A stretch of DNA of 32,201 nt from an uncultured Anaerolineaceae bacterium (GCA_964452955.1 CAYVRH010000001.1:1-32201); one strand, 5' to 3'. Shown: positions 7,850-32,201, counted from the stretch's first letter. The notes: generated from the sequence alone by a model not told the origin. A program made the numbers and translations.

Positions 7850-7860
7850 TGAGAGTGAAC

Positions 7861-8945: not shown

Positions 8946-8962
8946 GCGCCTCCATTGGCATT

Positions 8963-8990
8963 TTAACATGAACCTTAGTTAGGGTAAAAT
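8963..8990 (+). promoter_or_regulatory. Candidate sigma70-type promoter TTAACA-N16-TAAAAT, ending 6 nt before the ATG at 8997 (leaderless geometry)
   Basis: TTAACA lies at 8963-8968, followed by a 16-nt spacer and TAAAAT at 8985-8990. TTTGGC then precedes the ATG. Confidence 0.4.
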
Positions 8991-8996
8991 TTTGGC

Positions 8997-10055
8997 ATGC
9001 GAAAGAGATGGGCAAGACCCTTAAGCGGTGGCGTGATTCTCTTATTCCTGTTGCTACAGGCTTGCAGCGCAGGGCTGGCGGCAAGACCTCAGCTCACCGG
9101 TGGCAATTCCGGAATGTCCGCCGCTTCCAGCCCTACTCCTTTGCCAACATTTACCCCCACCCCGGCAGCCTTGGGAACCGGTGAAAACCCAATTACATTG
9201 GGTTTGATCGGCTCATGGAACAAACAGGACCAGAAATTGGCCTTGGACCAACTGGTTTTGAATTTACAGCAGGATCTGAACCTCCAATTCGCCTACGAAT
9301 ATTATGCTGGCTATTTTGAACTCGAGGAGTCAATCCTGAACGGCAAGGTTGATTTCACTTTTTTGGGACCCATTGAATATATCATTGGCAAACAAAAAGA
9401 CCTGCTGGCGGCTGGGCTGGTCAGCACCCACGCCGGTGTAAAGTCTTATGGCACCCAATTTTTTGCCCATAAGGACGCAAAATTTCAAGCTTTTTTTGAC
9501 CCAACCACCAACACATCCAACGCCAATCCTGCCAACGCATTACGGCAATTCAATGGCACAAAAGGCTGTTTTATCAGCGAGGATAGCTTGTCCGGTTATT
9601 GGGTTCCCATGGGTTATCTGATCGGTGCGAACATCCCGATCCAGGAACCGGTTTTTACCCAATCCAGTGCGGCCAGTTTGCGCTCACTCTACATCCAGGG
9701 TGTTTGTCAATTCGCGGTCACTTATTCTTCCATTAGCGATCCGCGTACCGCGTCGAATGTGATTACAGATTTGCCGGATATCATGGACAAGGTGCCAATT
9801 ATTTGGGCATCCCCACCAGTAATTCCCAACCACGCCGTTTTTTATTCCAACAGTCTGGCGCTTCCGATGCAGGCAAAGATATCCGAGCACCTCATCCAAT
9901 TCTCCAATACAATTGAAGGACGGGATTTGCTGAGTAAAGCGTTGGATTATGAAATTAATGGACTTTCCGGTGTTCCTGACAGTTTCTACGACCCTCTTCG
10001 TGCTCTTCTGGAGGTACAGGATATTCGCCTTTCCGATTTGCTCGAACTTCCATAG
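8997..10055 (+). CDS. Lipoprotein, PhnD-like (phosphate/phosphonate-type) ABC substrate-binding protein family, 352 aa
   Basis: The signal peptide carries a lipobox-like LLLQAC|S, followed by a Pro/Thr/Ser linker (SSPTPLPTFTPTPAALGTG). The mature domain has PITLGLIG..., VDFTFLGPIEY and DSLSGYWVPMGYL, typical of the PhnD/PF12974 fold. No permease or ATPase gene is adjacent. Confidence 0.6.
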   Translation: MRKRWARPLSGGVILLFLLLQACSAGLAARPQLTGGNSGMSAASSPTPLPTFTPTPAALGTGENPITLGLIGSWNKQDQKLALDQLVLNLQQDLNLQFAYEYYAGYFELEESILNGKVDFTFLGPIEYIIGKQKDLLAAGLVSTHAGVKSYGTQFFAHKDAKFQAFFDPTTNTSNANPANALRQFNGTKGCFISEDSLSGYWVPMGYLIGANIPIQEPVFTQSSAASLRSLYIQGVCQFAVTYSSISDPRTASNVITDLPDIMDKVPIIWASPPVIPNHAVFYSNSLALPMQAKISEHLIQFSNTIEGRDLLSKALDYEINGLSGVPDSFYDPLRALLEVQDIRLSDLLELP

Positions 10056-16300: not shown

Positions 16301-17689
16301 AACATCCGGAGCGCCTAATTCCAACAAACGCTTAAGGCGGTTGTTACGGTTGATCACACGGCGGTACAGGTCATTCAGATCAGAGGTAGCAAATCGACCG
16401 CCATCCAATTGAACCATGGGGCGTAAGTCAGGTGGAATCACAGGCAGAACGGTCAAGATCATCCATTCAGGACGGTTGCGTGAACGTCGGAAAGCTTCAA
16501 CAACCTTTAGACGCTGAGTAGCCTTCTTTCGCTTTTGTTTGCTCTTGGTGGTACGAGCTTCCTGCCAGAGATCCTCTGCCAGAGCATCCATATCGAGTCG
16601 TTTGAGGATGTCATAGAAAGCTTCCGCTCCCATGTCAGCCTTGAATACCTGGCCGTATTTGGATTTTAGATCACGATAATGCACTTCGCTTAAGAAGGTA
16701 AAGGGCTGAAGTTCGTATAACTCGTCGCGTTGACGGGCATTTTCCGTTTTTGTGGCGCCATTGTCTTCATCCAGCTGACCGCGAATGTCTTCCATGACAA
16801 TATCAGTCTTGGCTTTAATTTCGTCTTTTTGGATTTTGATGCCTTCCAGCTGACGGTTAAGCTCAACCTTCAGATCTTTTTCGAGGTCCTCGGTTAGTTC
16901 TTTTACGATTTTCTGAACTTTGTTAACGTGTTTATTGGCAACAATTTCTTCGGCCTCAACCACAGTCACATCGCCACTGTCGGCTTTGTAAACAATTGGT
17001 TTTCGGAATGATTTGCCAATCTTATCCTTGAGTTCTTGTTCGAGGCGCTGCCCTTCAGAAATCATAGGCTCAAACAGGGCCGCAGCTTTCTCATCGTATT
17101 CTTTCGTCAGCGCTTCAGCCTGGGCATCAAAATCTTTTAATTGACGATCACGCGCTTTTTTGACATCCGCGATCTGGGCATTAACTTTTTCGATTAATTC
17201 CCGTTCAGAAACGCTGATTTCATCATCCAGCCGTTTGAGGGCTTTTTGACGTGCATCTTCATCCACATAAGTCACGATGTACTGTGCAAAGTAGAGTACA
17301 CGGTCAAGGTTGCGGCGGGAGATATCCAGCAGGAGGCCTAAATAGGAAGGAATACGGCGGGTGTACCAAATATGTGCAACGGGAGCTGCAAGGTCAATAT
17401 GCCCCATACGCTCACGACGTACAGATGAACGGGTGACTTCCACACCACATTTGTCGCAGATAATTCCCTTATACCGAGGGTTTTTGTATTTGCCGCAGTA
17501 GCATTGCCAATCACGGGTGGGCCCAAAGATGGCTTCACAGAATAGACCGTCTTTTTCAGGTCGGAGACGGCGGTAGTTAATTGTTTCAGGTTTTAGAACT
17601 TCTCCATATGACCAGCTATGAATTGTTTCGGGGGATGCCAAATTGATGCGTAAGGCTTTCATTTCTTTAGTTTCCACTCGTACCTCCAA
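13343..17689 (-). CDS. rpoC: DNA-directed RNA polymerase subunit beta-prime, up to 1448 aa
   Basis: The Zn-binding [15 protein letters not shown] motif, the catalytic NADFDGDQM motif, the bridge helix and the trigger loop ([16 protein letters not shown], with no SI3-type insertion) are all present. The ORF-track start at 17689 is TTG and sits inside a GGAGGT. GTG 17677 (4 nt after GGAGGT) or ATG 17662 ([11 protein letters not shown]) may be the true start. Confidence 0.97.
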
Positions 17690-17824: not shown

Positions 17825-20134
17825 TTAAAACAACGTTCTTAACGGAAGGATCAATGTAAAGGTACTTCCCTCACCCAGTTTACTTTGCAGCTCTATTCTA
17901 CCACCATGTTTTTCAGCCACTTCCCTGGCAATTGAAAGACCCAGCCCCTGGCCGCGCATCGAAAAACCGTTAGCTTCTTCAACGCGATAAAAGCGATTAA
18001 ATATTTTTTCCTTGTCCATGAGGCTGATACCTTTTCCGTAATCTTTTACCTGGATGTACGCAAAATCATCATCCTTGAAAGCCGAAATTTCTACAGAGGC
18101 ATCATGGTTGCTAAATTTAATCGCGTTGTCGATAATGTTAAACACCGCTTCCTGAAGAAGTACCCGATCTGCCTGGATAAAATCTGACTTTAATCCAGAA
18201 TAATCAGTGCGCAAAAGTAGTTTTTTCTGATTTGCCTGCAGTGCCAGAACAGAAATGACATCTTCAATCACCTTTCGAATGTCAACTGTATCCAGGCTAA
18301 GCGTTTGCCTGGCATCTAGTTGCTCAAGGCTCAAGAGTTTATGAGTAAGAATATCCATGGTATCCACATTGGCATGGATTTTTTCAAGATATTTCTGTTG
18401 TTCCGGTATCAGCTCCCCAAGGTTTTGCAGCAGTAATAAGTAACCCCGCATTAACTTAAGAGGCGACTGCAAGTCGTGGCTGATATTAGTCAGGAACTGA
18501 ACTTTTTGCTGATCCGTTTCAGATATTTCGGAAGCGTTAATAATCTGGATGACCTTACCCAGTTGGTCTTTGCCAGCCATGATTGGAAAGTAGTTGGCCT
18601 GGTAGAGATTGCTTGCCAATCTGAAGCTGAGCGAAGACGCTGAATCTGAGTTTTGAAGGGCAAAATTGAGGAATTCCTCATTTTCATGAATGCCCGGCAG
18701 GAATGTAAAGAGATTACCATATTGGTCAATGAGCGCATTTGCCCTCTGATTGGCAAATACTACTTTATTGGTCGTGTTGAGCACAAAATGAGCTTGTGGC
18801 AGAGAGTCGATTGCGCTGATCAGCCAGGCTCCCTGATCCGTTACCAAGTTGAGCCGCTCCACCGTGCGCAGCAGAATTGCTGCTCTTTGGCCGACAGCTT
18901 CGTAGAAGCCCGTTTCACGGCTGTTAAAGACATGATTTTCCTGAAAGCCCACCCAGAAAAGAGCTGTTTCTTTTTGAGAGATGTCGTATGTTTTGGCAAG
19001 TAACGATTTTGGCATCTGAAAATCATCGTTAATCCCAAAATACTGCTTTGCTTTGAGGTCGGTTAACATCAGCCTTTCGTCTTTATCAAGACGGTTGATA
19101 AGAATCGCATCCATTGGCGCGAAAATTTCACTCTTTTGGCCGGTAGAATATTTTTCCTTGACGGATGTTGAATTTTGAGCGGCATTCGTACTGTAAATAA
19201 GTAAGCGAGAAGAATCCGCTCCGTAAGCCAATGTAGTTTCCAATAAACTCTGCATAGCTACGTTTCGACTTTCGCTACTATCATCATTTATTTGGATGGA
19301 TAATGCTTTGTTTACCAGGTCCTGCCTGGAGGCTAATTCATCGCGCAAGTCTTTTATCCTGGAAAGTAACACTTCTTCTTGTAATGAAGTGACTTGAATT
19401 GGAGCCGGTAAATCCAAATGACCTTTGGCCAGACTTTCGATGGACCGATTGGCAAAATCAACCACTGCTTTTCTAGAACCTGTCGCCCGAATGAATTTGG
19501 ATGGCAACCACGCTAATGACGAAAACAGATTCACAGCATGGATCAAAAGAATTGACAAAATAAGGGCGGGCAGGCTTGAAATCCAGCTGTTCAAGCTAAA
19601 CTGGACAAGCGGAAATAGGTATCCATCCTTTTCCAGTAACTGCAAAAGGAGCTGAAAGATGAAAATTATAGGCAATAATTCCAAAAAACTAACAGTAAAT
19701 CGCAGTGTTAAACCAGATCGGTTGCCACGTTCTTCCGGTTTACTAAATTTTTGAGCCAGCAAAATCAAGAATGCCCATTGCGTGATAATCGCCAAAATAC
19801 TTTGACCATGCACAGCCATTTGAGTTAATCCAGCAACCAATCCGACAATCAAGGCAGGCAAAAGACCGACTAGTCCCAGGCTTAGAACCGCGGGAAGCAT
19901 GCCGAGTATTGAGAAAAATACTGGATTGGACTCAAATGAACCTGGGATGGCAGGCAACTGAAGTACCAGGTACAGAAAACGAGTAAACAGGAAGGCACTT
20001 GCGAGCAGAATAACAAAAAAGATCCCATTTTGGAGTGAAAGCCTGTTGGGTTGAGCCTGCAGTTTCCGAGTGTAAAAAAGGCTGATCAAGGCGGAAACGG
20101 TCAGAACGATGGCTTGACTCCAGGTAAGCTGCAT
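17825..20134 (-). CDS. Sensor histidine kinase with a polytopic N-terminal membrane domain, 769 aa; no response regulator in the window
   Basis: Residues ~1-215 form about six hydrophobic helices. A central ~330-aa cytoplasmic region looks GAF/PAS-like. The H-box is FLTNISHDLQSPLKLMRGY, the N-box is FNIIDNAIKFS, G1 is VKDYGKGI and G2 is GQGLGLSIAREVAEKHGGRI. Confidence 0.9.
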   Translation of the reverse strand: MQLTWSQAIVLTVSALISLFYTRKLQAQPNRLSLQNGIFFVILLASAFLFTRFLYLVLQLPAIPGSFESNPVFFSILGMLPAVLSLGLVGLLPALIVGLVAGLTQMAVHGQSILAIITQWAFLILLAQKFSKPEERGNRSGLTLRFTVSFLELLPIIFIFQLLLQLLEKDGYLFPLVQFSLNSWISSLPALILSILLIHAVNLFSSLAWLPSKFIRATGSRKAVVDFANRSIESLAKGHLDLPAPIQVTSLQEEVLLSRIKDLRDELASRQDLVNKALSIQINDDSSESRNVAMQSLLETTLAYGADSSRLLIYSTNAAQNSTSVKEKYSTGQKSEIFAPMDAILINRLDKDERLMLTDLKAKQYFGINDDFQMPKSLLAKTYDISQKETALFWVGFQENHVFNSRETGFYEAVGQRAAILLRTVERLNLVTDQGAWLISAIDSLPQAHFVLNTTNKVVFANQRANALIDQYGNLFTFLPGIHENEEFLNFALQNSDSASSLSFRLASNLYQANYFPIMAGKDQLGKVIQIINASEISETDQQKVQFLTNISHDLQSPLKLMRGYLLLLQNLGELIPEQQKYLEKIHANVDTMDILTHKLLSLEQLDARQTLSLDTVDIRKVIEDVISVLALQANQKKLLLRTDYSGLKSDFIQADRVLLQEAVFNIIDNAIKFSNHDASVEISAFKDDDFAYIQVKDYGKGISLMDKEKIFNRFYRVEEANGFSMRGQGLGLSIAREVAEKHGGRIELQSKLGEGSTFTLILPLRTLF

Positions 20135-20136: not shown

Positions 20137-20871
20137 CTAAGATCCTTCTTTAGGTCCTCTAAGCTTCAAAGTTTGTTTACGCTCACAGGTCTTATAGTAG
20201 TCGTAAATGACCTCAACTACCTCTTCAACATGGAGCGAATCCGTATCAATCACCAACGCGTCATCCGGAATTACCAGGGGAGCCGTTTTCCGATTGCTAT
20301 CTAATTCATCGCGATGTCTGATCGAATCCAAAACCTGCTGGTAAGTAATCTCCCGCTTCGCGGCTTGTTCTTCTGCAAAGCGACGTTCAGCCCTGACTTC
20401 CTGGGAAGCATCCAGGTAAATTTTACACGGGGCATCTGGTAGTACCACCGATCCGATATCCCTCCCCAGCATGACTATAGAACCTTTGGCGGCGATTTTT
20501 CGTTGTTGCTCGGTCATCGCTTTACGAACTTCCGGATAGGCCGAGACCTCGGAAACCAGGTTGTTCACCTCCGGCTGGCGAATCTGCCAGGTTGCGTCTT
20601 TACCGTCAATCAGGACGTCATTCATGCGGCCATCATCCGATGAAGGCGGCAAAATATCAATATCCACTTTCCAGGCTAAGGCGCTTACACTTGTTTCATC
20701 CCTGTAATCCAGGCCAGTCTGAATGACTACATAGGTGATGGCGCGATACATAATACCTGTATCAAAGCAAACGAACTTCAGCTTCTGAGCCAATTTTTGA
20801 CCGACCGTTGTTTTACCAACCGCCGCCGGGCCATCAATCGCTATCACCATTTTTGGTTTGATCTTTTTCAT
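20137..20871 (-). CDS. cmk: Cytidylate kinase, 244 aa
   Basis: The sequence contains VIAIDGPAAVGKTTVGQKLAQKL (P-loop), FDTGIMYRA and GRDIGSVVLPDA. GGGAGGAAA lies immediately upstream of the ATG. The ATG overlaps the upstream stop (ATGA at 20868-20871). Confidence 0.93.
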   Translation of the reverse strand: MKKIKPKMVIAIDGPAAVGKTTVGQKLAQKLKFVCFDTGIMYRAITYVVIQTGLDYRDETSVSALAWKVDIDILPPSSDDGRMNDVLIDGKDATWQIRQPEVNNLVSEVSAYPEVRKAMTEQQRKIAAKGSIVMLGRDIGSVVLPDAPCKIYLDASQEVRAERRFAEEQAAKREITYQQVLDSIRHRDELDSNRKTAPLVIPDDALVIDTDSLHVEEVVEVIYDYYKTCERKQTLKLRGPKEGS

Positions 20872-22529
20872 TTTCCTCCCGGAAAGAGGGATGTATTTAC
20901 CCAGAGCGTCTTTCGGATATCCACAGTCGGCAATGTTTTGGTTGCGATCATCTGCAGCAACTCAGCAAGAGCATTTTCAGATAGGTTCAAACGCCTGGCA
21001 TAAGTAATGGAAGTTCCCCTATAAGCAGACATCAAGCCGGATTCTGTCAGGCTGTCATTGACGACAAAACCTGGGAGGGGATCAGTCTTGGCTGAATCAG
21101 AATACGCTTTGAATTCCCAATAATCGCCTTTGCTAAGCACACCATCAATCGTGAAGCTATCGATATCAGGATTAATGGCATTGTTGGTTGAAAATACAGC
21201 CAATTCGGTAGAAGTAGGGCTTTCAGGGTAAAGAATTTCTGAATTGCTGAAAAGTAACTGGCTTACAGTGGCATTGTTCCAGGTTTGGGACAAAGAAAAG
21301 CCTAGTGAAAAAAGAGCGGCTACTACGAGAATGGCTGTCTGTAATGCGGGTTTGACCTCAGAAAAGCCCCAACCCAACCCGATCAGGATGTAACTGATCA
21401 AAATCAACCCCAATGCCAATAGCAATGGCAGCAGATCCATCGCGAAATTGAATTCTGATATTAGATTTCGAGCTAACTGGGTGAAGGTCAAAAGTGAAAA
21501 GATGAAGATCACCAGGAAGAAAACAAAAGATATCAAACTCACCGTGCTCACTTTAGCTGAAAGTGATTCTGATTGTGTGATCAGCAATGCAACCTGGATA
21601 ATTAAAAAGGCTTGCAAAAAGATGAATGATCCCGGGAGATAGCTCTGAAGGATTAAGCTCAACAGAAACAAACCAAGGAATATGCTTAGTCCTGATTTCC
21701 AAGAGAGAGAAGTGTTTCCAGATATGGCTCTTCCAAAAGGCAAAAGCAGATAGAGGCTGTAGGTCAGAAGAAGGAAGACCGGTAAAAACCAGAGAAGAGA
21801 TTGACCGCTTTGAATGGCAAACAAATCCACCAATCCGGAGCCAATTCCAGTCAAGCCAGCAGGATTTAGCAGGAAGGAAGTTGAAACAAGAACTCCGCTC
21901 AGCACTGCGCTGATAAAAAAGGATTTGCTCGGACTACAAAAGTCAAAAAGCCCTGAATGCATGGCCTTGCGTTTTGAAAAGTAGAGAAACAGACCAACCA
22001 AGCACATTAGAAAGAGAGCGATCCAGAAGTACTTTCCGGATAAGATTGCCAAGCCAAAGAGGATACCAGCTGCCACTTGTTTACGTTGATGAAGGAAAAC
22101 CAATAGCCAGGCAATAGTACTGGTTGCGAGTATGGGGCCATTGAGTTGTCGGGAGTAAATAAGAAAGATGGGGTCTAGGGCCAAAAGCAATGAAACCCCT
22201 AATAACGCGCTGGCGTTTTTATTTCTTAAGAGTGCGTATGGAATCAGCGTTAGTGAGGCACCAAATAGCGCTGGAATCAGCCTGGCAAAAAGATTACTTG
22301 TGGTACTAATCCAAAACAAAGCTCCTGTCAGCCCGGTGTATAAAGCAAGCGGGGATGAGCTGCTGGTTTGGTGCTTACTGATTTCGAGGGCTTGCCAGGC
22401 CAGATCAGCATCTGCCCTGGTGAATGGTACTGTGTCAGCTACCACTAAACGCAGAAACAAGGCAAATCCAAATATCACCAAGACTATGGGGAATATGTAA
22501 GGTTTGCGTGCCAAGCTTTGGCTATCCAT
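20868..22529 (-). CDS. Polytopic membrane protein, 553 aa, possible GT-C-type (PMT_2/ArnT-like) glycosyltransferase with a C-terminal extracytoplasmic domain
   Basis: About 12-14 hydrophobic helices span residues ~10-440. The first loop FLRLVVADTVPFTRADADLAWQAL resembles the ArnT/PMT N-terminal pattern, meaning a TM helix followed by an acidic loop. The C-terminal ~110 aa are soluble. The start overlaps the upstream stop (TAATG) and the stop overlaps the cmk start. The functional call is weak. Confidence 0.5.
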   Translation of the reverse strand: MDSQSLARKPYIFPIVLVIFGFALFLRLVVADTVPFTRADADLAWQALEISKHQTSSSSPLALYTGLTGALFWISTTSNLFARLIPALFGASLTLIPYALLRNKNASALLGVSLLLALDPIFLIYSRQLNGPILATSTIAWLLVFLHQRKQVAAGILFGLAILSGKYFWIALFLMCLVGLFLYFSKRKAMHSGLFDFCSPSKSFFISAVLSGVLVSTSFLLNPAGLTGIGSGLVDLFAIQSGQSLLWFLPVFLLLTYSLYLLLPFGRAISGNTSLSWKSGLSIFLGLFLLSLILQSYLPGSFIFLQAFLIIQVALLITQSESLSAKVSTVSLISFVFFLVIFIFSLLTFTQLARNLISEFNFAMDLLPLLLALGLILISYILIGLGWGFSEVKPALQTAILVVAALFSLGFSLSQTWNNATVSQLLFSNSEILYPESPTSTELAVFSTNNAINPDIDSFTIDGVLSKGDYWEFKAYSDSAKTDPLPGFVVNDSLTESGLMSAYRGTSITYARRLNLSENALAELLQMIATKTLPTVDIRKTLWVNTSLFPGGK

Positions 22530-25204
22530 TACCTAATACCTGCCATTTTGTTCTCAAAGATCCTGACGGAGTCATAATCAAATGCAAGCGCGAGGTGTTC
22601 ATTGAATTTCTGTTCATTAAGCTTATAGTTGCTCGCTTCAAGCGGCCCAACGTACACATAGCGAATATTATAGCGTGTGAGAATTTCAGCAGCCCGATCC
22701 CAATCAGCCGTAGAGTAGAGTACTTCCAAATCCTTGTACCGCGTGCCCATTTCAACGTCACCGCCACGCCATTGTGATTCGTGCCCAACCCAACCCAAGA
22801 CAGAGGGCATGCCGCTAAATGTCGACGCGTAATTAAAAGTGGAGTACTGCCCGCCATTGTTGGCTTCAGCCAAAACACCCAGAGGGGCTTTGCGAAGCCA
22901 CTTGACTGCTTCGATCTCATCGGCTTGTAGGACACTCTGCATACCGTCCAGAGATGGCAAGCTAATGCTACTGAAGCCGTTTGTCTTTTGCCAGGTCTGA
23001 ACTACCGGATAGATGAGCCCGGCAAGCAAACCAAAAATGATGAAGGCCGAAACTGCAGTTGTCCGATGCCGCTTTATCAAATTAACAACCATAACCAAAA
23101 CAAAAATTACTGGAATGGCTAACACCACGTAATCAAGCGGACTGCTCCCCAAGGGTCCGAGGTTTTGGTTCAAGGTGTTATAGATGACGTCATTACGGTA
23201 TATCCCCATGAATAAGGCGGCCACACCAAGCAAGAAGACCGATACTAAACTGAGGTTGCTAAATAGATTAGGTCGGCCTGCATTCCTTACCAAGCGGATG
23301 GTTGCGTAAGAAGCAACCAAAGACCACAAAATCCAAGCCTGAAAGTAGAACTTGAATATGGTGTTCATTCGATTCGCGAATTGATCTCTAAGAAATATGA
23401 ATTCAGGAATTAACGCAAAGAGTGCTCCCAGGAGGATCAGAAACAGCAAGAAAATTTCGGGGTGTGCTTTTGTCTCTGATTCTGCAATGACAGTTGGCTT
23501 GGCTAATATTTGCTGATTTCTGGCCAGAATTAACGCCAAAGCCAAAAAGATCATAACAGCGACGCTAAGTAATGTAAAAGGATCAGCTAATCTGGCTTGC
23601 AAGGCTAATTGCAGGGCTTCTTGGGCAGAACTTGCCCCTAAACGCATCAGCAAGGTTTGCCCTATCAAATCGATCGTGAGAACCAAGTAGCCAGCGCCCA
23701 AAGTGAATGCTAACCCGAGAACGCTAATTGCGATCGAAATCAGGCCAGCCTTGAGTACAGCCTTAAGGTCGAATTTTTTTATCAGACAATAGCTTAGATA
23801 CGCAAAAATTGCCAGCAACAGTGGTCCGAACATAACCCAAAAATACTTCCCAGCGGTAAAGAAACTAAAACTCGGTAGAATGCCTCCCGCCTGGGAACTG
23901 AAACTTAGAAAAAATGGTAAATAAAGCAGGATGCTGCCAATACCCAAACCAAGGCTAAGCTGTACAAACTGCCAGATACGTCCTCGCCATCCATGTTGAA
24001 GAAAAGAAAAATACACAATACTACACGCAACAAGCACGAGATAAAATGGAAAGTCCCAGGTATTTATGAAGGACAAGCCTCCAAGCGTGATAAGTCCAAT
24101 GGCAAGGTGAATCGGTTCAAGCTCCAGCGAACCAAACCAAGACCGCGCTTTTCCATGCCATCCGCCCAATAAGGCTTCGAAAGCCATTCCTATCGAAAGC
24201 AGGATGAAAGGCATATTCAGGATATGCGGATGGATATCCGCAAGTAAAAAGCTGAACGCGGGAAACTCATCGATAATCTCGATTGGTGAACCAGCAAAAT
24301 TGTGGTCAATCACCGTTCGCGAAGCTGCCCACCAGGTCCAACCTCCCCCACGTAATGGATACCAGGATAAGTTTTTAGGGGCTTCAGTCAACTCCCTCAG
24401 GTTAAGTTTGGACCAAAACTCGGACGCCAAATTACCAAGCCCGTCGTTTGAATAGAACAAGCCACGGCTGTGCAAGACATCAAAGAATCCATGCCAATTT
24501 GAAATTACCAGTAGCATCACAGGTGCCAGTATAGAGGTTCGATACACCCATTCAGGTATTTCATGTTTTACAGAATTCCTTCTGGAGCAAACCAGCAGGC
24601 TGAAAACAATTCCATAAGCCCCTAAAGCAGTCATGGCATACCAATAGGCGGCAATCAGGTTGTACCCAATCTCAGATGCTGTTCCCGTAATGCGGGTTAT
24701 CATGACACCCAGCAGATAGCCGAAATAGTAGTAAGAGATACTGTAGCCACTCAGCCAGGGATCCAGTGGTGGAAAGGATGGTGAGCGTCCGATGGCATTG
24801 ATAAAGGCCATCTCCATAAACTTCTCAGTATTGATGATTTCAGGATTGAACGCACGCAACAAAGCCATCAGGACAAATGCAATGAGAAAGACCCCTTCTG
24901 CCCAGAATATCAAGCGCTGAAAGCTTTTGATTTCATTCCAAATAGTTTGAAAACTGTCTTTCCTGGCCAGTAAAAAGTTAACCGCCAGTAAAATGCCTAA
25001 AGCTACCAATTGGCCTGAAACATCGTTGTGCAACAATCCGAGTGTAACCAACCACCAGAATAAAAACCCCCAAAGCAAGAGCCCCAATGGTTTGGCAAAA
25101 AAGTACCCCTTGCCCGGCAGGCGGCTGAACAATATCCGGCAGAGCGGTAAAGTAACCAAGCCAATTAAGATTGAGAATATCCACCATAAAACTGCCTGGA
25201 TCAT
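22529..25204 (-). CDS. DUF2298 / Chlor_Arch_YYY family integral membrane protein, 891 aa (908 aa if started at 25255)
   Basis: It is highly hydrophobic. The motifs are LPGKGYFFAKPLG, NTEKFMEMAFINA, YYYFG (24719-24733), EFPAFSFLLADIHPH (ADIHPH at 24224-24241), NTWDF (24050-24064) and RMNTIFKFYFQAWILWSLV. The C-terminal soluble domain has VLGWVGHESQWRG and IRYVYVGPLE. I prefer ATG 25204 because it forms an ATGA overlap with the upstream stop. Confidence 0.75.
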   Translation of the reverse strand: MIQAVLWWIFSILIGLVTLPLCRILFSRLPGKGYFFAKPLGLLLWGFLFWWLVTLGLLHNDVSGQLVALGILLAVNFLLARKDSFQTIWNEIKSFQRLIFWAEGVFLIAFVLMALLRAFNPEIINTEKFMEMAFINAIGRSPSFPPLDPWLSGYSISYYYFGYLLGVMITRITGTASEIGYNLIAAYWYAMTALGAYGIVFSLLVCSRRNSVKHEIPEWVYRTSILAPVMLLVISNWHGFFDVLHSRGLFYSNDGLGNLASEFWSKLNLRELTEAPKNLSWYPLRGGGWTWWAASRTVIDHNFAGSPIEIIDEFPAFSFLLADIHPHILNMPFILLSIGMAFEALLGGWHGKARSWFGSLELEPIHLAIGLITLGGLSFINTWDFPFYLVLVACSIVYFSFLQHGWRGRIWQFVQLSLGLGIGSILLYLPFFLSFSSQAGGILPSFSFFTAGKYFWVMFGPLLLAIFAYLSYCLIKKFDLKAVLKAGLISIAISVLGLAFTLGAGYLVLTIDLIGQTLLMRLGASSAQEALQLALQARLADPFTLLSVAVMIFLALALILARNQQILAKPTVIAESETKAHPEIFLLFLILLGALFALIPEFIFLRDQFANRMNTIFKFYFQAWILWSLVASYATIRLVRNAGRPNLFSNLSLVSVFLLGVAALFMGIYRNDVIYNTLNQNLGPLGSSPLDYVVLAIPVIFVLVMVVNLIKRHRTTAVSAFIIFGLLAGLIYPVVQTWQKTNGFSSISLPSLDGMQSVLQADEIEAVKWLRKAPLGVLAEANNGGQYSTFNYASTFSGMPSVLGWVGHESQWRGGDVEMGTRYKDLEVLYSTADWDRAAEILTRYNIRYVYVGPLEASNYKLNEQKFNEHLALAFDYDSVRIFENKMAGIR

Positions 25205-28200
25205 GGTTTCACCTGATAAATACTGGTTTGTCCCGAACTGAACACTTTGTCCCAAAGCAAGCTATCATATTGAGCAAATTTTTCCAACCCAGTGGCTGGA
25301 TAGAAGCGGGCTTCCAATTGTCCAACGACAATATAAGCCACCTTATATTCCTCTAGAAATTGCTTTATAAAGTCCAGATCAGATGTATTGTAAAACGCAT
25401 TGACTGAGTCCACTCGTTCTTGAACACGATTATCCGCCAGAACCGCGTGCTGTTGACGTTGGTGATAATTCCAACCCACTACACCGGGAAGCCCAGTATA
25501 GATGGTAAAGCGGTTACCCCAGCGATATTCATAGGCCTGGCCTTCCAGAATGACCGGGGAACCTTTTACGTTTTCCTGCATCCAAAGGATGGCTTCATAA
25601 TCTTCCTCCAAGTTCATCGCTTGAACTTGTTGCGGGCGTTGGGGGTCCAAATTACCTGGTTCGATATAGCTCGAAGTTTTCATAAAGGCCATCCCATCCA
25701 GTGTGTGTGGAGCATTTCTATCCATACGGTCAGTCATTTTGTCTATGCCTGCCATAATAGGGAAAAAGGCAGCCCCAGCCAATAAGAGGATGAGCGCAAG
25801 TTCAAATAACTGCTGAAATGGCGGCTTCCATTTTTTATGTGCTTTCCATACCAGCATTATGGCAGGTCCAGCGACTAAGGAAAGCAAAATCCAAGCCTGT
25901 AAATAAAGTTTGAAAACAGAATTCTGACGGCCATTATCGCCTTCAGGCCAGATAAGCTCAACAAAAATGGTAAGAAGGAAGGCCGTACCAATGATAAAGT
26001 AAGTTATTCTATTGGAATCTGATTTTTCTTCAGTAATCAAAAGAAAGAGCGCAAGCAAGCAGATGGGGAAAGCATATACAGCCACAACCACTTTCATTAA
26101 TAGCAAAGCCACAAAAGTAAATCCGAGAAATACGCTGGCGATAATTATTTTGTCTTTGTGAGCTGCATACTTTTCTAAGGTAGAAATTCTTGTCTTCTTC
26201 AGCCAGATGTATAGCTGCCACATGAGAAATGCCGCGATAACAAACAGGAATACACCCCAGTGCCCTGTGAAAGATTTCAATGGAGTGCGAGCCCCTTCCC
26301 ATAACGCCACCTTATTGTATCCAGGGCGGAAAAGGTCATTAAAAGGCTTGTACATTACAACGCTTAGCGCGAATAACGATATCGCCGAAATAAGGGCGGG
26401 AAGATAACGCGTGAGTTTCAGCCAACCTGGTTTGATTGGGGGCATATAGCGCAGACCAGTGTACAAAACCACTGCTATAGCAAGTAATGGATAGGTGTAA
26501 AAATCCCAGGTATTGATAGGTTTTAAGGAACCCAATACCAAGCCGCCCAAACCAAAGACCGCGACCATTTTGAAAATGCGTTGTTTTAAGTTCTCTCCAA
26601 AATTCATGCGGGTTTGCAGGAATGAGAGTGCCCAGGCTACCGCCAGAATGGCCACAGGCATAACCATCAAATGGGCATGCAGATCCGCGTACAAAAACGT
26701 GAACATGGGGAATTCAGTGATTGGTTCTCCAGGGATCATGCGGCTGGGTATCCAGTACCAATCCCCCGGGTATAGCGGCAAAGGTGTTTTTTGCAGATAC
26801 TTGATAAGCCCTGAGAAAAAGAAACCAACTTTTTGAAAATATGTTGCCACTGCCAGGTCCGCGCCAGCGGCGCCCAGCTTCTCAAGAGTCTCTTTGAATA
26901 GCCGTATTGCCCCCAGGTTGCCCAGAAAAGCCAGTAATAATGCGGACCAAATGCCTGCCCAGAAAGGCTGGCCGAATAACCTGAATTGCGGCGCTTCCCT
27001 GAGCATACTCTTCAGCAGATTCCAACCAATGCTATAGGCTCCAATGAACACAAGCGCGTACCAGATGGGCAGAATGATGTTATATGCAATGGATGGCACA
27101 ATCCCCAAAAGCTTCACGGGCATCGCCAGGATTACAAAGCCGTAATAGTAATAATTGATGAAATCACCAGCAAACCAAGGGTTATAGGCTGGGAAGATAC
27201 TGCTTTTGAGAACAGCATTGAAGAACGAGAAATCCATCGGTTTCTCGCCACCTTTCCAGGGGTGCCACAAATCCGGGTTCTGATAGCGCACATACAGGAA
27301 AAATGCAAATGCGAGAAGAGAAAGTACTTCTATGAGAAGATATTGCTTCCACAAAAGTTTCAGGTCAGCTAGGAGAGCTTTGCGGGTCAAAAAGGCAGTG
27401 ATGAGATTGATGAAGATAATAATGATCAAAACCAGCAAAATGGTGGTTTTTGTTGCCTGAATTCCGTAATTACCAGCGATGAAAACAAGGTACGCCAGCC
27501 CCAGCAGTGCCGAAATCTTTGAAAACGCGAATCCCTTATCCTTTAAACCGCCCAATGCCAGGCGAATAACAGGGAAATTCAGCCATCCGAACAGGGTGAT
27601 GAAAAGGTAGAGAACAGCTGCGCCAAGGAAGGGTGTACGATTTAATGGGTTTTCCCGGTCAAAAAGTTCATTCCATGTGCCCCCCTCTGTCTGCGTTTGC
27701 AGTTCCTGGGGCGTCAATCGCAGTTGGCTTTGCGGGGTATCGGCAGATTTGAAAGTGTCGGCTTGTTTGGCGGTAATATTGACCACTTTTCCAAGATCGA
27801 CTTGCGCAAAAAGGGCTTTTACCTGATCGAGATTGAAGTTCTCATTTTTACGAAAAACAAGTGTCTTTGGGTGATCATAGACAGAAAATGCCTCTTCAGC
27901 ATACTGGTCATTGAACCTTAAATTGCCTAAATTGGGATAGGAGGTGCCCACATAAACAAGGTCAAAACCCAACCTGCCCAAATTGGAACCCAACTCAGCA
28001 TCGTTATAACAACGCACGATGTCTGTGCCGTCTTCGCAACCCATTAGCTCCTCATAAAACATGGTTGCGAGAGGGTAGCGTTCAGGCACCCGAACAGTCG
28101 TTCCCCAAACCCGGTTGGAACTCATCAGAATGTAATCGCTAAAATTGAGATTATCGAGCATGCGATCCAGTTTGTTCTGATCTTCAGCCCAATATAACTC

Positions 28201-30459
28201 CAGGTTTTTACCTTGGTAGGTGCCGTAAGTATCGCCATAAGGAATGTATCCCACGCGGGAAACAGGCAGTGCATCATCCCAACTGGTCTCAAGCAGGTTC
28301 ACTGGGGCGCTGATGCCAAGGGAACCCTCACCTCTGGTGAGCGCAATTTCAAGCAAAAGCTCCTGCTGGTCCTTTACCTCTAATGCGGGAGAAAAAGTAA
28401 CAACATATCTGTCTCCTGCTCCGTTCTTTGTCTTGAGAAAATCACTTTCAAGCGTTCCCAAACTTACCTGCTCAGGTGTGTTGAGAACGGATAGCCTGAA
28501 ATCGAGCTTTTTACTTGTTGGATTCTGTGAATAGTCCAATAGATGTGGAATTTCAAGTTCCGTGATCGCGCCAATCCCAGTCGTTGAAAACCTGATTTGT
28601 TGAGCGGCGCCAACTCTTATTTGCGCGGTAATGCGAGGAAGGCTAATGGTATGGAAACTGCCATCACTTCTTGGGAAAGAAAGCTGCGGCTCACCCTGGA
28701 AATGTGTCATCGATTGTGGGGCAACCGCTCTAATTTCAAATAGGTAAGTCTCGCCCTTCTCAAAGGGATATAGCGGTAGTTTGAATGACAGTTTACTGGG
28801 AGAGTTTTCATTCTCAGAATACAGTTGAGCTTTTACAGCAGGTCCTAATGTTTGTCTGCCACCGTTGATGAGGAAGACCTCCAGCGTGTAGAGCGAGTTT
28901 TCCTTTAAATTGGCTTCATCCGAAACATTTGGAAGAGTGAGTGAATCCAAATTCTCATTGTCCGATGACTGATAGACAAGATATAAAGGCTCAGTACCTT
29001 GCAAAATTGCGTCCGCTGGGTAGGAGACAGGCAGCTTTTTGATACCTTCGGTAGTTTCATTTGTAAGGGTCAAAGCACCAGGGAGATTCTGGTAGATCCA
29101 TTCGCTGGTGCTAACCCTCGTGAAATCCCTGCTATAGATGCGCGTGAAGGCATATGCCCAGGCCACTGTACCAAGCAAGCCAAGCACGGCCAGCACCCGA
29201 ACCAGCCAAAGCCAAATGGGTGACTGTCCGAATTTCAGGTCTCTCTTCTTCGAAAAAACCTGCACCAATACCCAGGATGCTGAAAGTGCCAGTAGAGGGT
29301 AAATCAGCAGGTAATAGCGCATGGAAGAGGTCCATGAAAGCGATTGCCAGAGGAAATATAGCAATGTCCAAACAATGATTGGAAAATAGAAATAGGTTCG
29401 GCGCTTGATGTTTGTATATAGTTGCCCAAGCAAACCCAACACCGCCAAAACCGCGAAGGGAATTCCCATGCCCCAAACGGCAAGATTGTAGGGGCCAAAG
29501 AAAAATGAACGGCGTGCCCATTGCAGGGCAGGAGGAGAATCAGACAAACCCTTGGACGCTGCTGAAAGCTCCTGCATATTGGAAAGCCATTTCGGATTCA
29601 GGCTGAAATTGAAGAAACTAGGTCCGGTAAATGCATAAGGTTGAAGAACCCGGAATGTAATGAAACTAATGACGCCTGCCAGAGCCATTAAACCAAAGCT
29701 GCGCCAGTATCCATCCACTTCAAGATTCTGAGATTTTGCCTTGAGATACCTTACATAGAGAATTACCGGCAAAAGCAAGGCCAGCGTTACTGCGTTGGCC
29801 TTGGAGGCTGTGGCCATGCCCAGTGCCAAACCGAAAAAGATAAACAACCAAAGCTCTCGTCCACTTACTTTACGTGTTGTAGATAGCGGCGGCAGCATCT
29901 GGATTAAGACACCTGCGTAAATAGTCAGTAAACCAAATGTATTGGTGAAGGTGTCTACCGTCATGAAGTGGGCTTGTTGAATCGGTACAACGCTTAAAGC
30001 ATAGAAGGCTGCTGCTCCAAGCCCCAACCAATCGTTCCAAAGCTTTTTGCCAATAAAAAAGAGCAGAACGATTGTGGTGAGTTCAGTCAGTACGGAGAGC
30101 TGCCTGCCAAGCATTGTAATTGGGTCATAACCGGTCTGCTGCGTAAATTCGCCAATATAGCGGATAATGAATACTGGCAGCGTTCCGTAAACAAAAAAAC
30201 CATAACCTTGATTATGCGGGTTCAACGTGGAAGTTTCAGTATTGAAGTAGTCCTTGAGAGAGTTTACAGGCTGAATGCTGCTCTCCACCATCGATAGAAA
30301 CCGTTCATCCGGGTGCAGATGGGTGCCCATATCCCATTTCAGGTTATAGCTGCGCAATAAGAATCCAACCAAAAGGATAGAAACAAAAATCACCAGTTTT
30401 AGTGATTGTCTCAGCGCAGTTGGCTCAGGCTTTGGGCTAGGTAGTTTGGAACTATCCAT
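25201..30459 (-). CDS. Giant two-module integral membrane protein, 1752 aa. It has an N-terminal GT-C-like module, a ~500-aa extracytoplasmic region, and a C-terminal DUF2298/Chlor_Arch_YYY module with its soluble domain.
   Basis: Module 1 (aa ~60-490 of the track ORF) has HPDERF (30298-30315) in its first loop and GFFVYG (FFVYG at 30184-30198). Residues 492-988 are hydrophilic and beta-rich. Module 2 has LKDKGFAFSKISA, GGEKPMDFSFFNA, YYYYG (27139-27153), EFPMFTFLYADLHAH (26671-26688), NTWDF (26500-26514) and RQNSVFKLYLQAWILLSLV. The C-terminal domain has VVGWNYHQRQQ and VAYIVVGQLE. I trimmed the start from 30597 to ATG 30459 (MDSSKLPSPKPEP), 13 nt after the methyltransferase stop. Confidence 0.75.
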   Translation of the reverse strand: MDSSKLPSPKPEPTALRQSLKLVIFVSILLVGFLLRSYNLKWDMGTHLHPDERFLSMVESSIQPVNSLKDYFNTETSTLNPHNQGYGFFVYGTLPVFIIRYIGEFTQQTGYDPITMLGRQLSVLTELTTIVLLFFIGKKLWNDWLGLGAAAFYALSVVPIQQAHFMTVDTFTNTFGLLTIYAGVLIQMLPPLSTTRKVSGRELWLFIFFGLALGMATASKANAVTLALLLPVILYVRYLKAKSQNLEVDGYWRSFGLMALAGVISFITFRVLQPYAFTGPSFFNFSLNPKWLSNMQELSAASKGLSDSPPALQWARRSFFFGPYNLAVWGMGIPFAVLAVLGLLGQLYTNIKRRTYFYFPIIVWTLLYFLWQSLSWTSSMRYYLLIYPLLALSASWVLVQVFSKKRDLKFGQSPIWLWLVRVLAVLGLLGTVAWAYAFTRIYSRDFTRVSTSEWIYQNLPGALTLTNETTEGIKKLPVSYPADAILQGTEPLYLVYQSSDNENLDSLTLPNVSDEANLKENSLYTLEVFLINGGRQTLGPAVKAQLYSENENSPSKLSFKLPLYPFEKGETYLFEIRAVAPQSMTHFQGEPQLSFPRSDGSFHTISLPRITAQIRVGAAQQIRFSTTGIGAITELEIPHLLDYSQNPTSKKLDFRLSVLNTPEQVSLGTLESDFLKTKNGAGDRYVVTFSPALEVKDQQELLLEIALTRGEGSLGISAPVNLLETSWDDALPVSRVGYIPYGDTYGTYQGKNLELYWAEDQNKLDRMLDNLNFSDYILMSSNRVWGTTVRVPERYPLATMFYEELMGCEDGTDIVRCYNDAELGSNLGRLGFDLVYVGTSYPNLGNLRFNDQYAEEAFSVYDHPKTLVFRKNENFNLDQVKALFAQVDLGKVVNITAKQADTFKSADTPQSQLRLTPQELQTQTEGGTWNELFDRENPLNRTPFLGAAVLYLFITLFGWLNFPVIRLALGGLKDKGFAFSKISALLGLAYLVFIAGNYGIQATKTTILLVLIIIIFINLITAFLTRKALLADLKLLWKQYLLIEVLSLLAFAFFLYVRYQNPDLWHPWKGGEKPMDFSFFNAVLKSSIFPAYNPWFAGDFINYYYYGFVILAMPVKLLGIVPSIAYNIILPIWYALVFIGAYSIGWNLLKSMLREAPQFRLFGQPFWAGIWSALLLAFLGNLGAIRLFKETLEKLGAAGADLAVATYFQKVGFFFSGLIKYLQKTPLPLYPGDWYWIPSRMIPGEPITEFPMFTFLYADLHAHLMVMPVAILAVAWALSFLQTRMNFGENLKQRIFKMVAVFGLGGLVLGSLKPINTWDFYTYPLLAIAVVLYTGLRYMPPIKPGWLKLTRYLPALISAISLFALSVVMYKPFNDLFRPGYNKVALWEGARTPLKSFTGHWGVFLFVIAAFLMWQLYIWLKKTRISTLEKYAAHKDKIIIASVFLGFTFVALLLMKVVVAVYAFPICLLALFLLITEEKSDSNRITYFIIGTAFLLTIFVELIWPEGDNGRQNSVFKLYLQAWILLSLVAGPAIMLVWKAHKKWKPPFQQLFELALILLLAGAAFFPIMAGIDKMTDRMDRNAPHTLDGMAFMKTSSYIEPGNLDPQRPQQVQAMNLEEDYEAILWMQENVKGSPVILEGQAYEYRWGNRFTIYTGLPGVVGWNYHQRQQHAVLADNRVQERVDSVNAFYNTSDLDFIKQFLEEYKVAYIVVGQLEARFYPATGLEKFAQYDSLLWDKVFSSGQTSIYQVKP

Positions 30460-30472
30460 AATGACGCAAGTG

Positions 30473-31273
30473 TTATTTTGTGGCGATAAAGAATGTTTCT
30501 GTTCCGTCTTCGCAATACGGATTCTCAACCAATTGTCGGACTTTCCTAAAAGGTATAAATGGATTTTTAGCCGATGGAAAAAGGATCCATTTGCCAAATA
30601 CTTTCTTGTAAAACAAAGTCAGGATGCCAAATAAGTGGCCGCGTTCCAGCATATGTAATGCCCAAACGGGAAAGTAGTTAAACGATTCTACGTTCGTAAA
30701 GCCTGCTTCCAACAGCCTGGCTTTCCATGTTTCAGGTGTATCCAGATTGACATGCCTGGATATTTTGTTGAAAAATTTTGAGTAAGCTTTAGCCAACTTG
30801 TGTAAACCGATTTTCTGTAATACTTTCATCCCCCAAAGTTCAGTTTTGAACCGCGCATTGGGCACCGCGAAGTAGAACTTACCACCTGGAGCCAGGCAGC
30901 GATGTACATCATTCAGCACATATTGCACATTGGGTATATGTTCAAGGACTGAATTCGAAATCGCAGTTGGAAAGGAATCTTCGGGTACGGGTATCTGGTC
31001 ACCCATTCCTTGGACGAGCAAGCCATAAACCTGGCGCTTGCCCGCTTCCTGTAAGGGTTCCCACCAGGGATCGATACCAAACATGGTTTTCTTTTTCAGT
31101 AAAGCCTGGGCAAAATGGCCGTCCCCCGCGCCAATATCCAAAACAGGTTCTGCCAGGTCTTGCTCTTCGTAAAATCGTTGTTCACAAGCCCGCAGCATAC
31201 CCCGGAAATAGGGCATGCTAAAAAGTTGGCGTCTGCAGATTTGATTCAGTTCCTTTGAATTCAAAGTCACCAT
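30473..31273 (-). CDS. Class I SAM-dependent methyltransferase, 266 aa
   Basis: Motif I is VLDIGAGDGHF. The post-I acidic residue lies in FGIDP. The sequence also contains SNSVLEHIPN and LAPGGKFYFAVPN (Methyltransf_11-like). Confidence 0.85.
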   Translation of the reverse strand: MVTLNSKELNQICRRQLFSMPYFRGMLRACEQRFYEEQDLAEPVLDIGAGDGHFAQALLKKKTMFGIDPWWEPLQEAGKRQVYGLLVQGMGDQIPVPEDSFPTAISNSVLEHIPNVQYVLNDVHRCLAPGGKFYFAVPNARFKTELWGMKVLQKIGLHKLAKAYSKFFNKISRHVNLDTPETWKARLLEAGFTNVESFNYFPVWALHMLERGHLFGILTLFYKKVFGKWILFPSAKNPFIPFRKVRQLVENPYCEDGTETFFIATK

Positions 31274-31278: not shown

Positions 31279-32201
31279 TTATATTTTGAATAACTCCAGG
31301 TATTTTTTTGCCACAACTTCTTCACTGAATTCGTTGAGATAGTCAGTCTCGACGTGATAAGCGATTTTGCCTTTTTCAAGAACTTGAATGATCTTCTCTG
31401 CTAAATCGTGCGCGTTGGCAGCTTTAAAGAGCGCTCCTGCACCTGTTTGCGTAACTGGTACGCGAATTCCGGGGGAATCGGAAGCCACCACTGGAGTTCC
31501 CTGCGCGAAAGCTTCGATTTGCACCATGCCAAAAGCCTCGGTTCGATTAGTGCTCGAAACTACCAGCACATCACAAACCGCAAAGAAAGCCTGCAATTCT
31601 TCTTCAGACAGGAATCCCAATTTTTTCCAGTAAGCCGCCTGTGGTTTTATCAAGTTGTCGATGTAAGCCTGGTAAGCTTCCTCACCAACAACACCTTTCC
31701 ACGAGCCGGCATGCAAAACCATCACGTCAGGAAACATTTTGCGGATTTCGGGTAAGGCTTGAACCAGGATTTCATATCCCTTTTCGGAGGCAACCCGCCC
31801 GGATAGCCCGATATAGCGATGATTCTGATCCAAAGCGAACTTCTCACGTAATTGCACAATCGCTTCTTCTTTTACTGGTCGGGGGTTCACCGGCGGCCAG
31901 ACCACTTTTACCTTATCCAGTATGCCTTCAAGTGCAGGGGAGCTATTGGCATAATCCTGGGCTAGTGCGGCAATTGCGTCTGCTTTTTTGAGGGCTAGAC
32001 TATGCAGCCAACGGGTCCCAAGGTAAGGCAGCTGGGAGATAAAATGGCCTTCCTTTTCAAGATCACATTGGTAAGTGACAATAAGACGTTTGCCTTGTAC
32101 CTTAGCCATGGCAGCCAACTGGGCAGATTCAAACTGAGGCAAATGCAAATTCACCACATCCGCCCATTTAATCCAGGGTTTTGCTACTTTGCCCAATCCC
32201 A
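31279..32201 (-). CDS. Glycosyltransferase family 4 (GT-B, Glycos_transf_1); the N-terminus lies beyond the right window edge
   Basis: The C-terminal Rossmann half contains GRVASEKGYEILVQAL, LHAGS and the E-x7-E motif TEAFGMVQIEAFAQGTPVV. The ORF-track 'M' at 32196 is a TTG. The frame stays open to position 32201, so the gene is 5'-truncated by the window. Confidence 0.85.
   Translation of the reverse strand, partial: GLGKVAKPWIKWADVVNLHLPQFESAQLAAMAKVQGKRLIVTYQCDLEKEGHFISQLPYLGTRWLHSLALKKADAIAALAQDYANSSPALEGILDKVKVVWPPVNPRPVKEEAIVQLREKFALDQNHRYIGLSGRVASEKGYEILVQALPEIRKMFPDVMVLHAGSWKGVVGEEAYQAYIDNLIKPQAAYWKKLGFLSEEELQAFFAVCDVLVVSSTNRTEAFGMVQIEAFAQGTPVVASDSPGIRVPVTQTGAGALFKAANAHDLAEKIIQVLEKGKIAYHVETDYLNEFSEEVVAKKYLELFKI

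Follow-up and report, generated by a model that had tools for sequence, protein, structure and literature searches.

A PMT_2-like glycosyltransferase module and a complete DUF2298/YYY unit in one conserved chain: a likely bifunctional extracytoplasmic transferase of Anaerolineaceae

Glycosyltransferases (GTs) of the GT-C fold are polytopic enzymes, typically with 8-13 transmembrane (TM) helices, which use C55-phosphate (C55-P)-sugar donors and carry a DxD-like motif in an outside loop; the large ones also carry carbohydrate-binding domains, and the extracytoplasmic domains of the AftD/Emb type are thought to bind the acceptor polymer (PMC8035078). Here we analysed a 32,201-nucleotide (nt) stretch of DNA from an uncultured Anaerolineaceae bacterium (GCA_964452955.1 CAYVRH010000001.1:1-32201; this whole stretch is called the window below), which encodes a 1752-amino-acid (aa) protein consisting of two membrane modules, each followed by a soluble domain. 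Its closest described counterparts are the PMT/PMT_2-type GT-C enzymes (PF02366, PF13231; ArnT, fungal Pmt1/2/4, Listeria GtlB/GttB) for module 1, the single-module DUF2298/TIGR03662 'Chlor_Arch_YYY' proteins for module 2, and mycobacterial AftD and EmbA/B/C for the combination of a membrane core with outer domains. GT-C enzymes, also those with beta-sandwich domains, are thus already known, and the protein family is present in databases as 'DUF2298/YYY domain-containing protein'; what is new is a conserved chain that joins a PMT_2-like GT-C to a complete DUF2298 unit. Because the two modules belong to different families, the architecture is a fusion of two distinct families, and we hold both this architecture and its fusion origin with high confidence. 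The protein is likely a bifunctional transferase that acts outside the cytoplasm as part of a conserved cluster of glycan genes. To our knowledge, and in the literature searched, no natural single chain with two different GT-C-type catalytic modules has been described.

The gene encoding the fusion protein is complete in the window:
25201..30459, minus strand: coding sequence of the fusion protein, 1752 aa, stop codon 25201-25203 (open reading frame (ORF) listing)

The ORF listing reproduced the coordinates that an initial annotation of this DNA had given for the protein. The minus-strand frame 25201..30597 is open over 1798 codons when counted from a TTG, and the ATG at 30459, from which 1752 aa are read, sits 13 nt past the stop of the upstream methyltransferase gene. 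The TTG start at 30597 (1798 aa) was rejected: an ORF beginning there would share 125 nt with the methyltransferase gene, and homologs begin at the ATG, the start that gene callers assigned in the database homologs as well. Residues are numbered here from ATG 30459; the 'track' numbers of the initial annotation equal these plus 46. The motifs that it had quoted were all found in place, namely HLHPDERF at residue 47, FFVYG at 88, EKGETYLFEIRAV at 567, KDQQELLLEIALT at 696, SNRVWGTTVRVPERYP at 781, GGEKPMDF at 1070, NYYYYG at 1102 and VVGWNYHQRQ at 1660, with the D51-E52 dipeptide at nt 30304-30309.

The single chain is widely conserved. A protein search returned more than 120 full-length homologs of 1745-1805 aa with 43-86% identity, and all of the named ones come from Anaerolineaceae or Chloroflexota metagenome-assembled genomes. 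Species-representative genomes were scanned as well and gave 405 stretches with relatives; the best 80 all belong to Anaerolineaceae or Anaerolineales. Furthermore, all ORFs of 84 related loci from about 80 species-level Anaerolineae genomes were translated and scanned with hidden Markov models (HMMs) for the four parts of the protein. The results showed that about 75 of the 84 loci hold module 1, its alpha/beta domain, module 2 and the C-terminal domain in one stop-free ORF, while the remaining loci appear truncated at contig ends or broken by frameshifts. The closest database protein, P0001, also has 1752 aa and is near-identical to the fusion protein. Although listed at 100% identity, P0001 has E41 where the window has K41 (nt 30337-30339; NLEWDMG versus NLKWDMG), which is a single-residue strain difference.

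The N-terminal half begins with a membrane domain:
29125..30459, minus strand: module 1, residues 1-445, a PMT/PMT_2-like GT-C membrane domain with 11 predicted TM helices (AlphaFold2 (AF2), Foldseek, Pfam)
30301..30333, minus strand: first outward loop motif of module 1, WDxxxHLHPDER (invariant columns in 36 homologs)

D43, H47, H49, P50, D51, E52 and R53 of this loop are invariant in the 36 homologs, and the loop as a whole (residues 38-110) has a mean pairwise identity of 66%. In Pfam scans of 20 homologs, the module 1 half matched PMT_2 in 19 (E < 0.01, best 2e-9) and PMT in 10 (best 6e-10), and DUF2298 in none of the 20. More distant relatives even rise above the Pfam cutoffs (P0138 at 34.3 and 37 bits, P0262 at 38.5 bits). 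Since sequence searches of the PDB, made with each segment alone and with profiles of both halves, returned nothing meaningful, structure prediction and Foldseek were used instead. An AF2 model of residues 1-942 had a predicted local distance difference test score (pLDDT) of 81 and a predicted template modelling score (pTM) of 0.76. Searched against the PDB, this model gave 26 matches at E <= 1e-3, nearly all of them GT-C enzymes: AglB (5.8e-8), yeast and human STT3 (7e-6), ArnT (1e-5) and Pmt4 (1.6e-5), followed by EmbA/C, ALG9, DPY19, AftA and AftD. The model contains 11 TM helices, and D43, D51 and E52 are invariant in a loop predicted to lie outside. These profile matches and the predicted fold place module 1 among the GT-C glycosyltransferases of PMT/ArnT type. 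It resembles the described PMT/PMT_2-type enzymes in the predicted inside location of its N-terminus, in the acidic first outward loop, in the Pfam matches of its relatives together with the structural matches to ArnT and Pmt4, and in the outer soluble domain after the last TM helix. It differs from them in three respects: the fusion protein's own PMT_2 score is below the cutoff, the soluble domain belongs to no Pfam family and is interrupted by a duplicated pair of beta-sandwich domains, and a second large membrane module follows in the same chain.

The C-terminal half is a complete YYY unit, as the initial annotation had proposed:
25747..27633, minus strand: membrane part of module 2, residues 943-1571, DUF2298/TIGR03662, with 16 predicted TM helices (Pfam, TIGR03662, AF2)
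27097..27279, minus strand: outward loop of module 2, residues 1061-1121, NPDLWHPxKGGEKPMDF ... NPWFAGxxINYYYYG (82% mean pairwise identity)
25204..25746, minus strand: C-terminal soluble alpha/beta domain, residues 1572-1752 (TIGR03662 coverage, AF2 secondary structure)

PF10060 (DUF2298) matched residues 989-1526 with 338.7 bits (cutoff 27.8; E 8.5e-101; profile 3-488 of 488), and TIGR03662 matched residues 944-1751 from end to end with 457.5 bits (cutoff 300.25; E 1e-136; profile 2-727 of 727). Module 2 and its C-terminal domain therewith resemble the single-module 'Chlor_Arch_YYY' proteins over the full length, including the YYYxG motif, the difference being that the YYY unit here forms the C-terminal half of a fusion. 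The motif reads NYYYYG (residues 1102-1107), with Y1103, Y1104, Y1105 and G1107 invariant. It lies in the loop 1061-1121, which is the most conserved segment of the whole protein; E1072, K1073 and M1075 are invariant even in a 27%-identical paralog, and D1076 is nearly so, being replaced by E in that paralog. This acidic loop comes after the fourth TM helix of the module, not after the first. The C-terminal domain (65.6% mean pairwise identity) gave at most a chance-level match against Pfam at E <= 10. Two further motifs of module 2 are invariant, D-x-H-x-H (YADLHAH; D1259, H1261 and H1263; nt 26683-26697) and N-T-W-D (N1316, T1317, W1318 and D1319; nt 26503-26514). Both are found in loops assigned outside and neither is a classic GT-C signature; judged by its residues, the DxHxH could possibly be a metal-binding site.

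An AF2 model of module 2, built with 21 sequences, had a pLDDT of 84.7 and a pTM of 0.89. The best Foldseek match in the PDB was ArnT (5f15; E 0.017, probability 0.97, TM-scores 0.26/0.35); Pmt4 appeared far lower in the list with a probability of about 0.7, and the remaining matches were unrelated transporters. Because no PDB structure matched at E <= 1e-3, DUF2298 would be at most a very divergent GT-C-like family without a representative solved structure, and module 2 can be called at most weakly GT-C-like from its model.

TM helices were assigned from the AF2 models, a crude hydropathy scan having been dropped as too noisy for counting. This assignment gave 11 TM helices in module 1 and 16 in module 2 with the N-terminus inside, and lysine plus arginine make up 21% of the loops assigned inside versus 9% of those assigned outside. 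On these models, all conserved polar motifs, among them the two acidic loops and the DxHxH and NTWD motifs, are predicted to be outside, as are the central region and the C-terminal domain. The helix assignment and the positive-inside rule thereby agree, as predictions, with the claim of the initial annotation that both soluble regions are external, and under the same predicted topology each module presents invariant acidic residues in an outward-facing loop. The picture of a single chain that combines two polytopic, transferase-like membrane modules, each with a soluble domain behind it for which an outside location is predicted, was thus borne out. Mean pairwise identity is 53.6% for module 1 and 52.6% for module 2, so that by sequence the two membrane modules are under equal constraint.

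Four segments lie between the two membrane domains:
28690..29085, minus strand: beta-sandwich domain A, residues 459-590 (all-beta in the AF2 model, homologous to domain B)
28282..28689, minus strand: beta-sandwich domain B, residues 591-726 (all-beta in the AF2 model, homologous to domain A)
27805..28281, minus strand: alpha/beta soluble domain of module 1, residues 727-885 (AF2 secondary structure)
27634..27804, minus strand: linker, residues 886-942, with a GGTWSELFDR motif, running into TM12 (low-pLDDT stretches)

In the AF2 model, a helix (447-458) is followed by an all-beta region (463-723) and then by alpha/beta structure (749-884), and the beta pair sits between this helix and the alpha/beta domain. 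The alpha/beta domain has a mean pairwise identity of 62.5% and contains the conserved motifs ESSWDD, SSNRxWG, RVPERYP and AEEAFSVYDHPK; the linker contains the invariant residues Q923, G927, T928, W929, F933 and N940. The two beta-rich segments that had been noticed in this region are therefore real as predicted folds, and they are homologous to each other: domains A and B aligned over 124 columns with an hhalign probability of 98.8% (E 6.4e-17), which by sequence makes them a genuine tandem domain duplication and explains the 'similar endings' remarked upon earlier. The beta domains are the fastest-evolving part of the protein (28-33% mean pairwise identity), and relatives, with and without DUF2298, carry 0, 1, 2 or 3 detectable copies. 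The spacer that separates module 1 from the alpha/beta domain was sized in 220 relatives and measured about 16 aa in 8, 115-200 aa in 38, 200-300 aa in 168 and 300-400 aa in 6; in the standalone relatives P0201 and P0224, 'WIYxNIP' is joined straight to 'ESxWDD' without any insert. The spacer classes and the varying copy number indicate that the beta pair is a variable insertion in the soluble domain of module 1, in line with the insertion that the initial annotation had envisaged. No Pfam family was found for the alpha/beta domain at E <= 10. A Foldseek search on viral structures, tried as a way of naming the beta domains, returned only low-TM-score matches to phage tail and fibre beta-sandwiches. 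A carbohydrate-binding role of the pair is plausible by analogy with AftD. AftD and EmbA/B/C share with the fusion protein a GT-C core, outer beta-sandwich domains and additional TM helices. However, the extra TM helices of AftD are not a second conserved enzyme-like family, whereas those of the fusion protein make up an entire DUF2298 unit; no sequence relation could be detected between its beta domains and known carbohydrate-binding modules; and no acyl-carrier-protein partner is indicated for the fusion protein.

With moderate confidence, the best explanation of the protein as a whole is a fusion of two families whose modules both act on one cell-surface glycan, and the protein probably helps to build this glycan. 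The conserved polar sites of both modules would face the exterior of the membrane, and both modules would act on the same growing surface glycan or glycoconjugate, so that the fusion protein would perform two extracytoplasmic steps on one acceptor; holding or measuring this polymer would be the task of the fast-evolving beta-sandwich pair. The fusion in one chain argues for a shared pathway of the PMT_2-like enzyme and DUF2298. That both modules are active glycosyltransferases is a claim that falls slightly short of an even chance in our estimate. More tentatively still, DUF2298 could be a highly divergent and so far overlooked branch of the membrane transferases that depend on lipid-linked sugars, which in Anaerolineae, together with the PMT_2-like GT-C, provides two sequential outward-facing sites, with the beta pair binding or measuring the acceptor. 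If so, the chain would bring two outward sites to bear on a Chloroflexota-specific surface glycan, for example for priming and elongation, or for two linkages. Residues that can be named for mutation are D51 and E52 in module 1, and E1072, D1076, D1259, H1261 and H1263 in module 2.

Several results weigh against this reading. The PMT_2 match of the fusion protein itself reached only 18.4 bits (E 0.0026) against a Pfam cutoff of 26.1, and the topology comes from the helices of the models together with the charge bias of the loops. Module 2 gave no PDB match at E <= 1e-3 in Foldseek, and with 16 TM helices, four of them before the 'catalytic' loop, it is unlike a canonical GT-C. For the beta pair, no Pfam family was found at E <= 10, and its structural matches were weak (phage tail and fibre proteins, neuropilin b1b2, Cry toxin domains). 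Neither the window nor the neighbouring genes that were inspected showed the usual GT-A-type polyprenyl-phosphate-sugar synthase, and literature searches turned up no functional work on DUF2298 or on the fusion architecture.

Alternatively, module 1 could be the sole glycosyltransferase and DUF2298 another outward-facing enzyme or handler that serves the same polymer, such as a metal-dependent transferase, ligase or hydrolase working with the invariant DxHxH and NTWD motifs, or a part of an export system or scaffold. This alternative, which we consider rather unlikely, gains from the failure of the module 2 model to match any PDB entry at E <= 1e-3, with unrelated transporters filling the list beyond ArnT and Pmt4, from the four extra helices at the N-terminus of its 16-TM layout, and from the invariant D1259, H1261, H1263, N1316, T1317, W1318 and D1319, which are not classic GT-C signatures, in a family without assigned function in the literature searched. 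On the other hand, the best structural match of module 2 is still a GT-C enzyme, ArnT, and its most conserved segment is an acidic loop behind a TM helix, as in the first loop of GT-C enzymes. The recurrence of DUF2298 fused or adjacent to PMT_2-type genes, also seen elsewhere (PMC8756737), fits both readings.

The initial annotation had instead explained the protein by a duplication within the chain: a [YYY membrane module + outer domain] unit would have been copied in tandem, and its first copy would have diverged and gained inserts. To compare the halves, hhalign profiles were built from 36 homologs (shallow) and from about 230 and 187 sequences of 50%-identity clusters (deep). Module 1 against module 2 gave a probability of 0.4% with the shallow profiles and of 9.7% with the deep ones (P 0.0033; residues 202-405 versus 1298-1541), and cross HMM searches between the modules gave E values of 0.28 and 2.7 in a seven-sequence database. 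The profile-profile test that had been set for the duplication thus spoke against it, every such comparison remaining below significance. The line-up of the two first outward loops that had been pointed out was found again by hhalign as the same 61-column colinear alignment (WD..HLHP-DE versus LWHP..GEK; F.S..V; SSI.P; NP...G..F.YYG), but it was not significant (P 0.015, probability 3%). Likewise, the end of the central region had been said to resemble the C-terminal domain, yet the two soluble domains showed no detectable similarity (0.2% shallow, 0.3% deep). These weak colinear signals, together with the presence of an alpha/beta domain behind each module, are what the duplication has in its favour; the signals themselves reflect at most an ancient kinship within the GT-C superfamily.

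Other observations are equally hard to reconcile with a duplicated unit. Relatives of module 1 match PMT_2 or PMT and never DUF2298, and the layouts differ, with the loop after TM1 in an 11-TM module versus after the fourth helix in a 16-TM module. DUF2298 and TIGR03662 each occur exactly once in the chain, not twice, and the HMM of module 2 finds no match in module 1. The second architecture class of TIGR03662 proteins, which the initial annotation had cited, combines two YYY copies with TPR repeats and an additional region at the N-terminus; the fusion protein is unlike this class, having one YYY copy and no TPR family reported in Pfam and TIGRFAM scans. Nor is module 1 a decayed copy: F88-T93 (FFVYGT) is invariant across homologs down to 44% identity, HPDER is invariant too, and the two modules are equally conserved. 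FFVYG is therefore a motif conserved in its own right and not a decayed YYYxG.

In addition, each half also exists on its own. When a profile of residues 1-942 was used in an exhaustive representative search, 6906 proteins matched at E <= 1e-3. Among them are standalone proteins of 600-750 aa that contain the HLHPDERF loop, module 1 and the alpha/beta domain and stop soon after VYDHPKVLIFKK, with no DUF2298; matches of 900-1200 aa that end exactly at the match end were not counted as standalone forms because they are probably contig-end fragments. Module 1 with its soluble domain is thus an independent family. Standalone DUF2298 proteins occur too, including an 891-aa one, 27% identical to module 2, that is encoded directly downstream of the fusion gene. 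Larger relatives were also seen (P0219, 2315 aa; P0229, 2434 aa; P0239, 2445 aa). P0219 has a strong PMT_2 match at 190-347, a module-1-like unit from about 757 and DUF2298 at 1514-2089, and this domain order means three membrane-transferase-like modules in one chain. Overall, we regard an internal duplication of the whole unit as very improbable, and the evolutionary reading is corrected to a fusion of two families combined with a duplication at the level of single domains.

A mis-assembly or sequencing error that joined two adjacent genes would be conceivable in principle, since related genomes contain separate PMT_2-type and DUF2298 genes as direct neighbours. It has, however, a negligible chance of being the explanation and can be set aside, because the intact four-part ORF recurs in about 75 of the 84 independent loci, which stem from various species and assemblies, the same ORF is present in more than 120 full-length clusters of the database, and the junction itself (linker 886-942) carries invariant residues.

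Beyond the fusion protein itself, the genes around it were examined:
31279..32196, minus strand: GT4 (GT-B) glycosyltransferase, cut by the window end (Pfam Glycos_transf_1)
30473..31273, minus strand: S-adenosylmethionine (SAM)-dependent methyltransferase, directly upstream of the fusion gene (Pfam Methyltransf_23, Methyltransf_11)
22529..25204, minus strand: single-module DUF2298 paralog, 891 aa (Pfam and TIGR03662; 27% identity to module 2)
20868..22529, minus strand: 553-aa polytopic membrane protein (same operon; its start overlaps the stop of the paralog)

The gene order in the window is GT4, SAM methyltransferase, fusion gene, DUF2298 paralog, 553-aa membrane protein and cmk. The TGA of the fusion gene overlaps the ATG of the paralog as ATGA (25201-25204), and by ORF coordinates the paralog and the 553-aa gene overlap by 1 nt (22527-22531) and the 553-aa gene and cmk by 4 nt (20868-20871). 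These overlaps of 1-4 nt suggest that the genes from the fusion gene to cmk form a translationally coupled operon. A DUF2298 paralog stands beside the fusion gene in about 60 of the 84 related loci, a homolog of the 553-aa protein occurs in 71 of them, and the methyltransferase keeps its place in related loci. The 553-aa protein had no Pfam match even at E 10. Its N-terminus aligned colinearly with module 1 in hhalign ('pfs..EA' versus 'HPDER'), although not significantly (probability 4%), and by sequence it may be another very divergent GT-C-like protein. Only 305 aa of the GT4 are visible in the window, compared with 381-386 aa at full length in related loci; the gene runs off the window end, and the upstream part of the cluster therefore lies outside the window.

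This part can be seen in three homologous loci, L001, L003 and L004 (those of P0008, P0087 and P0067; 44-48% identity; compared over ~4000-10000 each). They hold the same cluster, with a gene for a PF03706 (LPG_synthase_TM, flippase-like) protein upstream of the GT4. Two genes absent from the window stand between their methyltransferase and fusion genes, one of the Methyltransf_21 family and one for a separate PMT_2 GT-C (about 700 aa); L003 is without the DUF2298 paralog. Across related loci, the conserved order runs from PF03706 through the GT4, one or more methyltransferases, in some cases a PMT_2 gene, the fusion gene and in some cases the DUF2298 paralog to a membrane protein of about 550 aa. 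UbiA and GHMP-kinase genes were observed near these clusters on the opposite strand. Compared with described multi-component transmembrane glycosylation systems (PMC8035078), the cluster likewise combines a GT of the cytoplasmic side with several outward-facing GT-C-type proteins and, in related loci, with a flippase-like protein; however, its cytoplasmic GT is a GT4 (GT-B) and not the usual GT-A, its flippase candidate is PF03706 and not GtrA or Wzx, and its related loci hold two methyltransferases. A similar association is found in the neighbourhood table of Chloroflexi bacterium 44-23, in which a DUF2298 gene adjoins PMT2/PA14 and PMT2 genes (PMC8756737); this gene set is an unfused version of the same association, with the PA14 carbohydrate-binding domain on the PMT2 partner.

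In such a cluster, the donors of the fusion protein would probably be lipid-phosphate-linked sugars that are made in the cytoplasm and then flipped outward. The neighbouring GT4 could make the lipid-linked precursor, the PF03706 flippase-like protein, whose gene is known from the related loci and would lie beyond the window end, could flip it, and the neighbouring methyltransferase may modify the sugars. For DUF2298/TIGR03662, a large family of Chloroflexota and Archaea, the fusion, which was seen in hundreds of Anaerolineae genomes, and the cluster together provide a testable context in extracytoplasmic glycan assembly. The cell envelope of Anaerolineae is poorly understood, and the cluster is a candidate for the synthesis of one of its major glycoconjugates. 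Elsewhere the window carries housekeeping genes, including gyrA (10722-13169), rpoC (13343-17689) and a histidine kinase gene (17825-20134), and its sole tRNA gene is a tRNA-Pro (CGG) at 599-674 on the minus strand.

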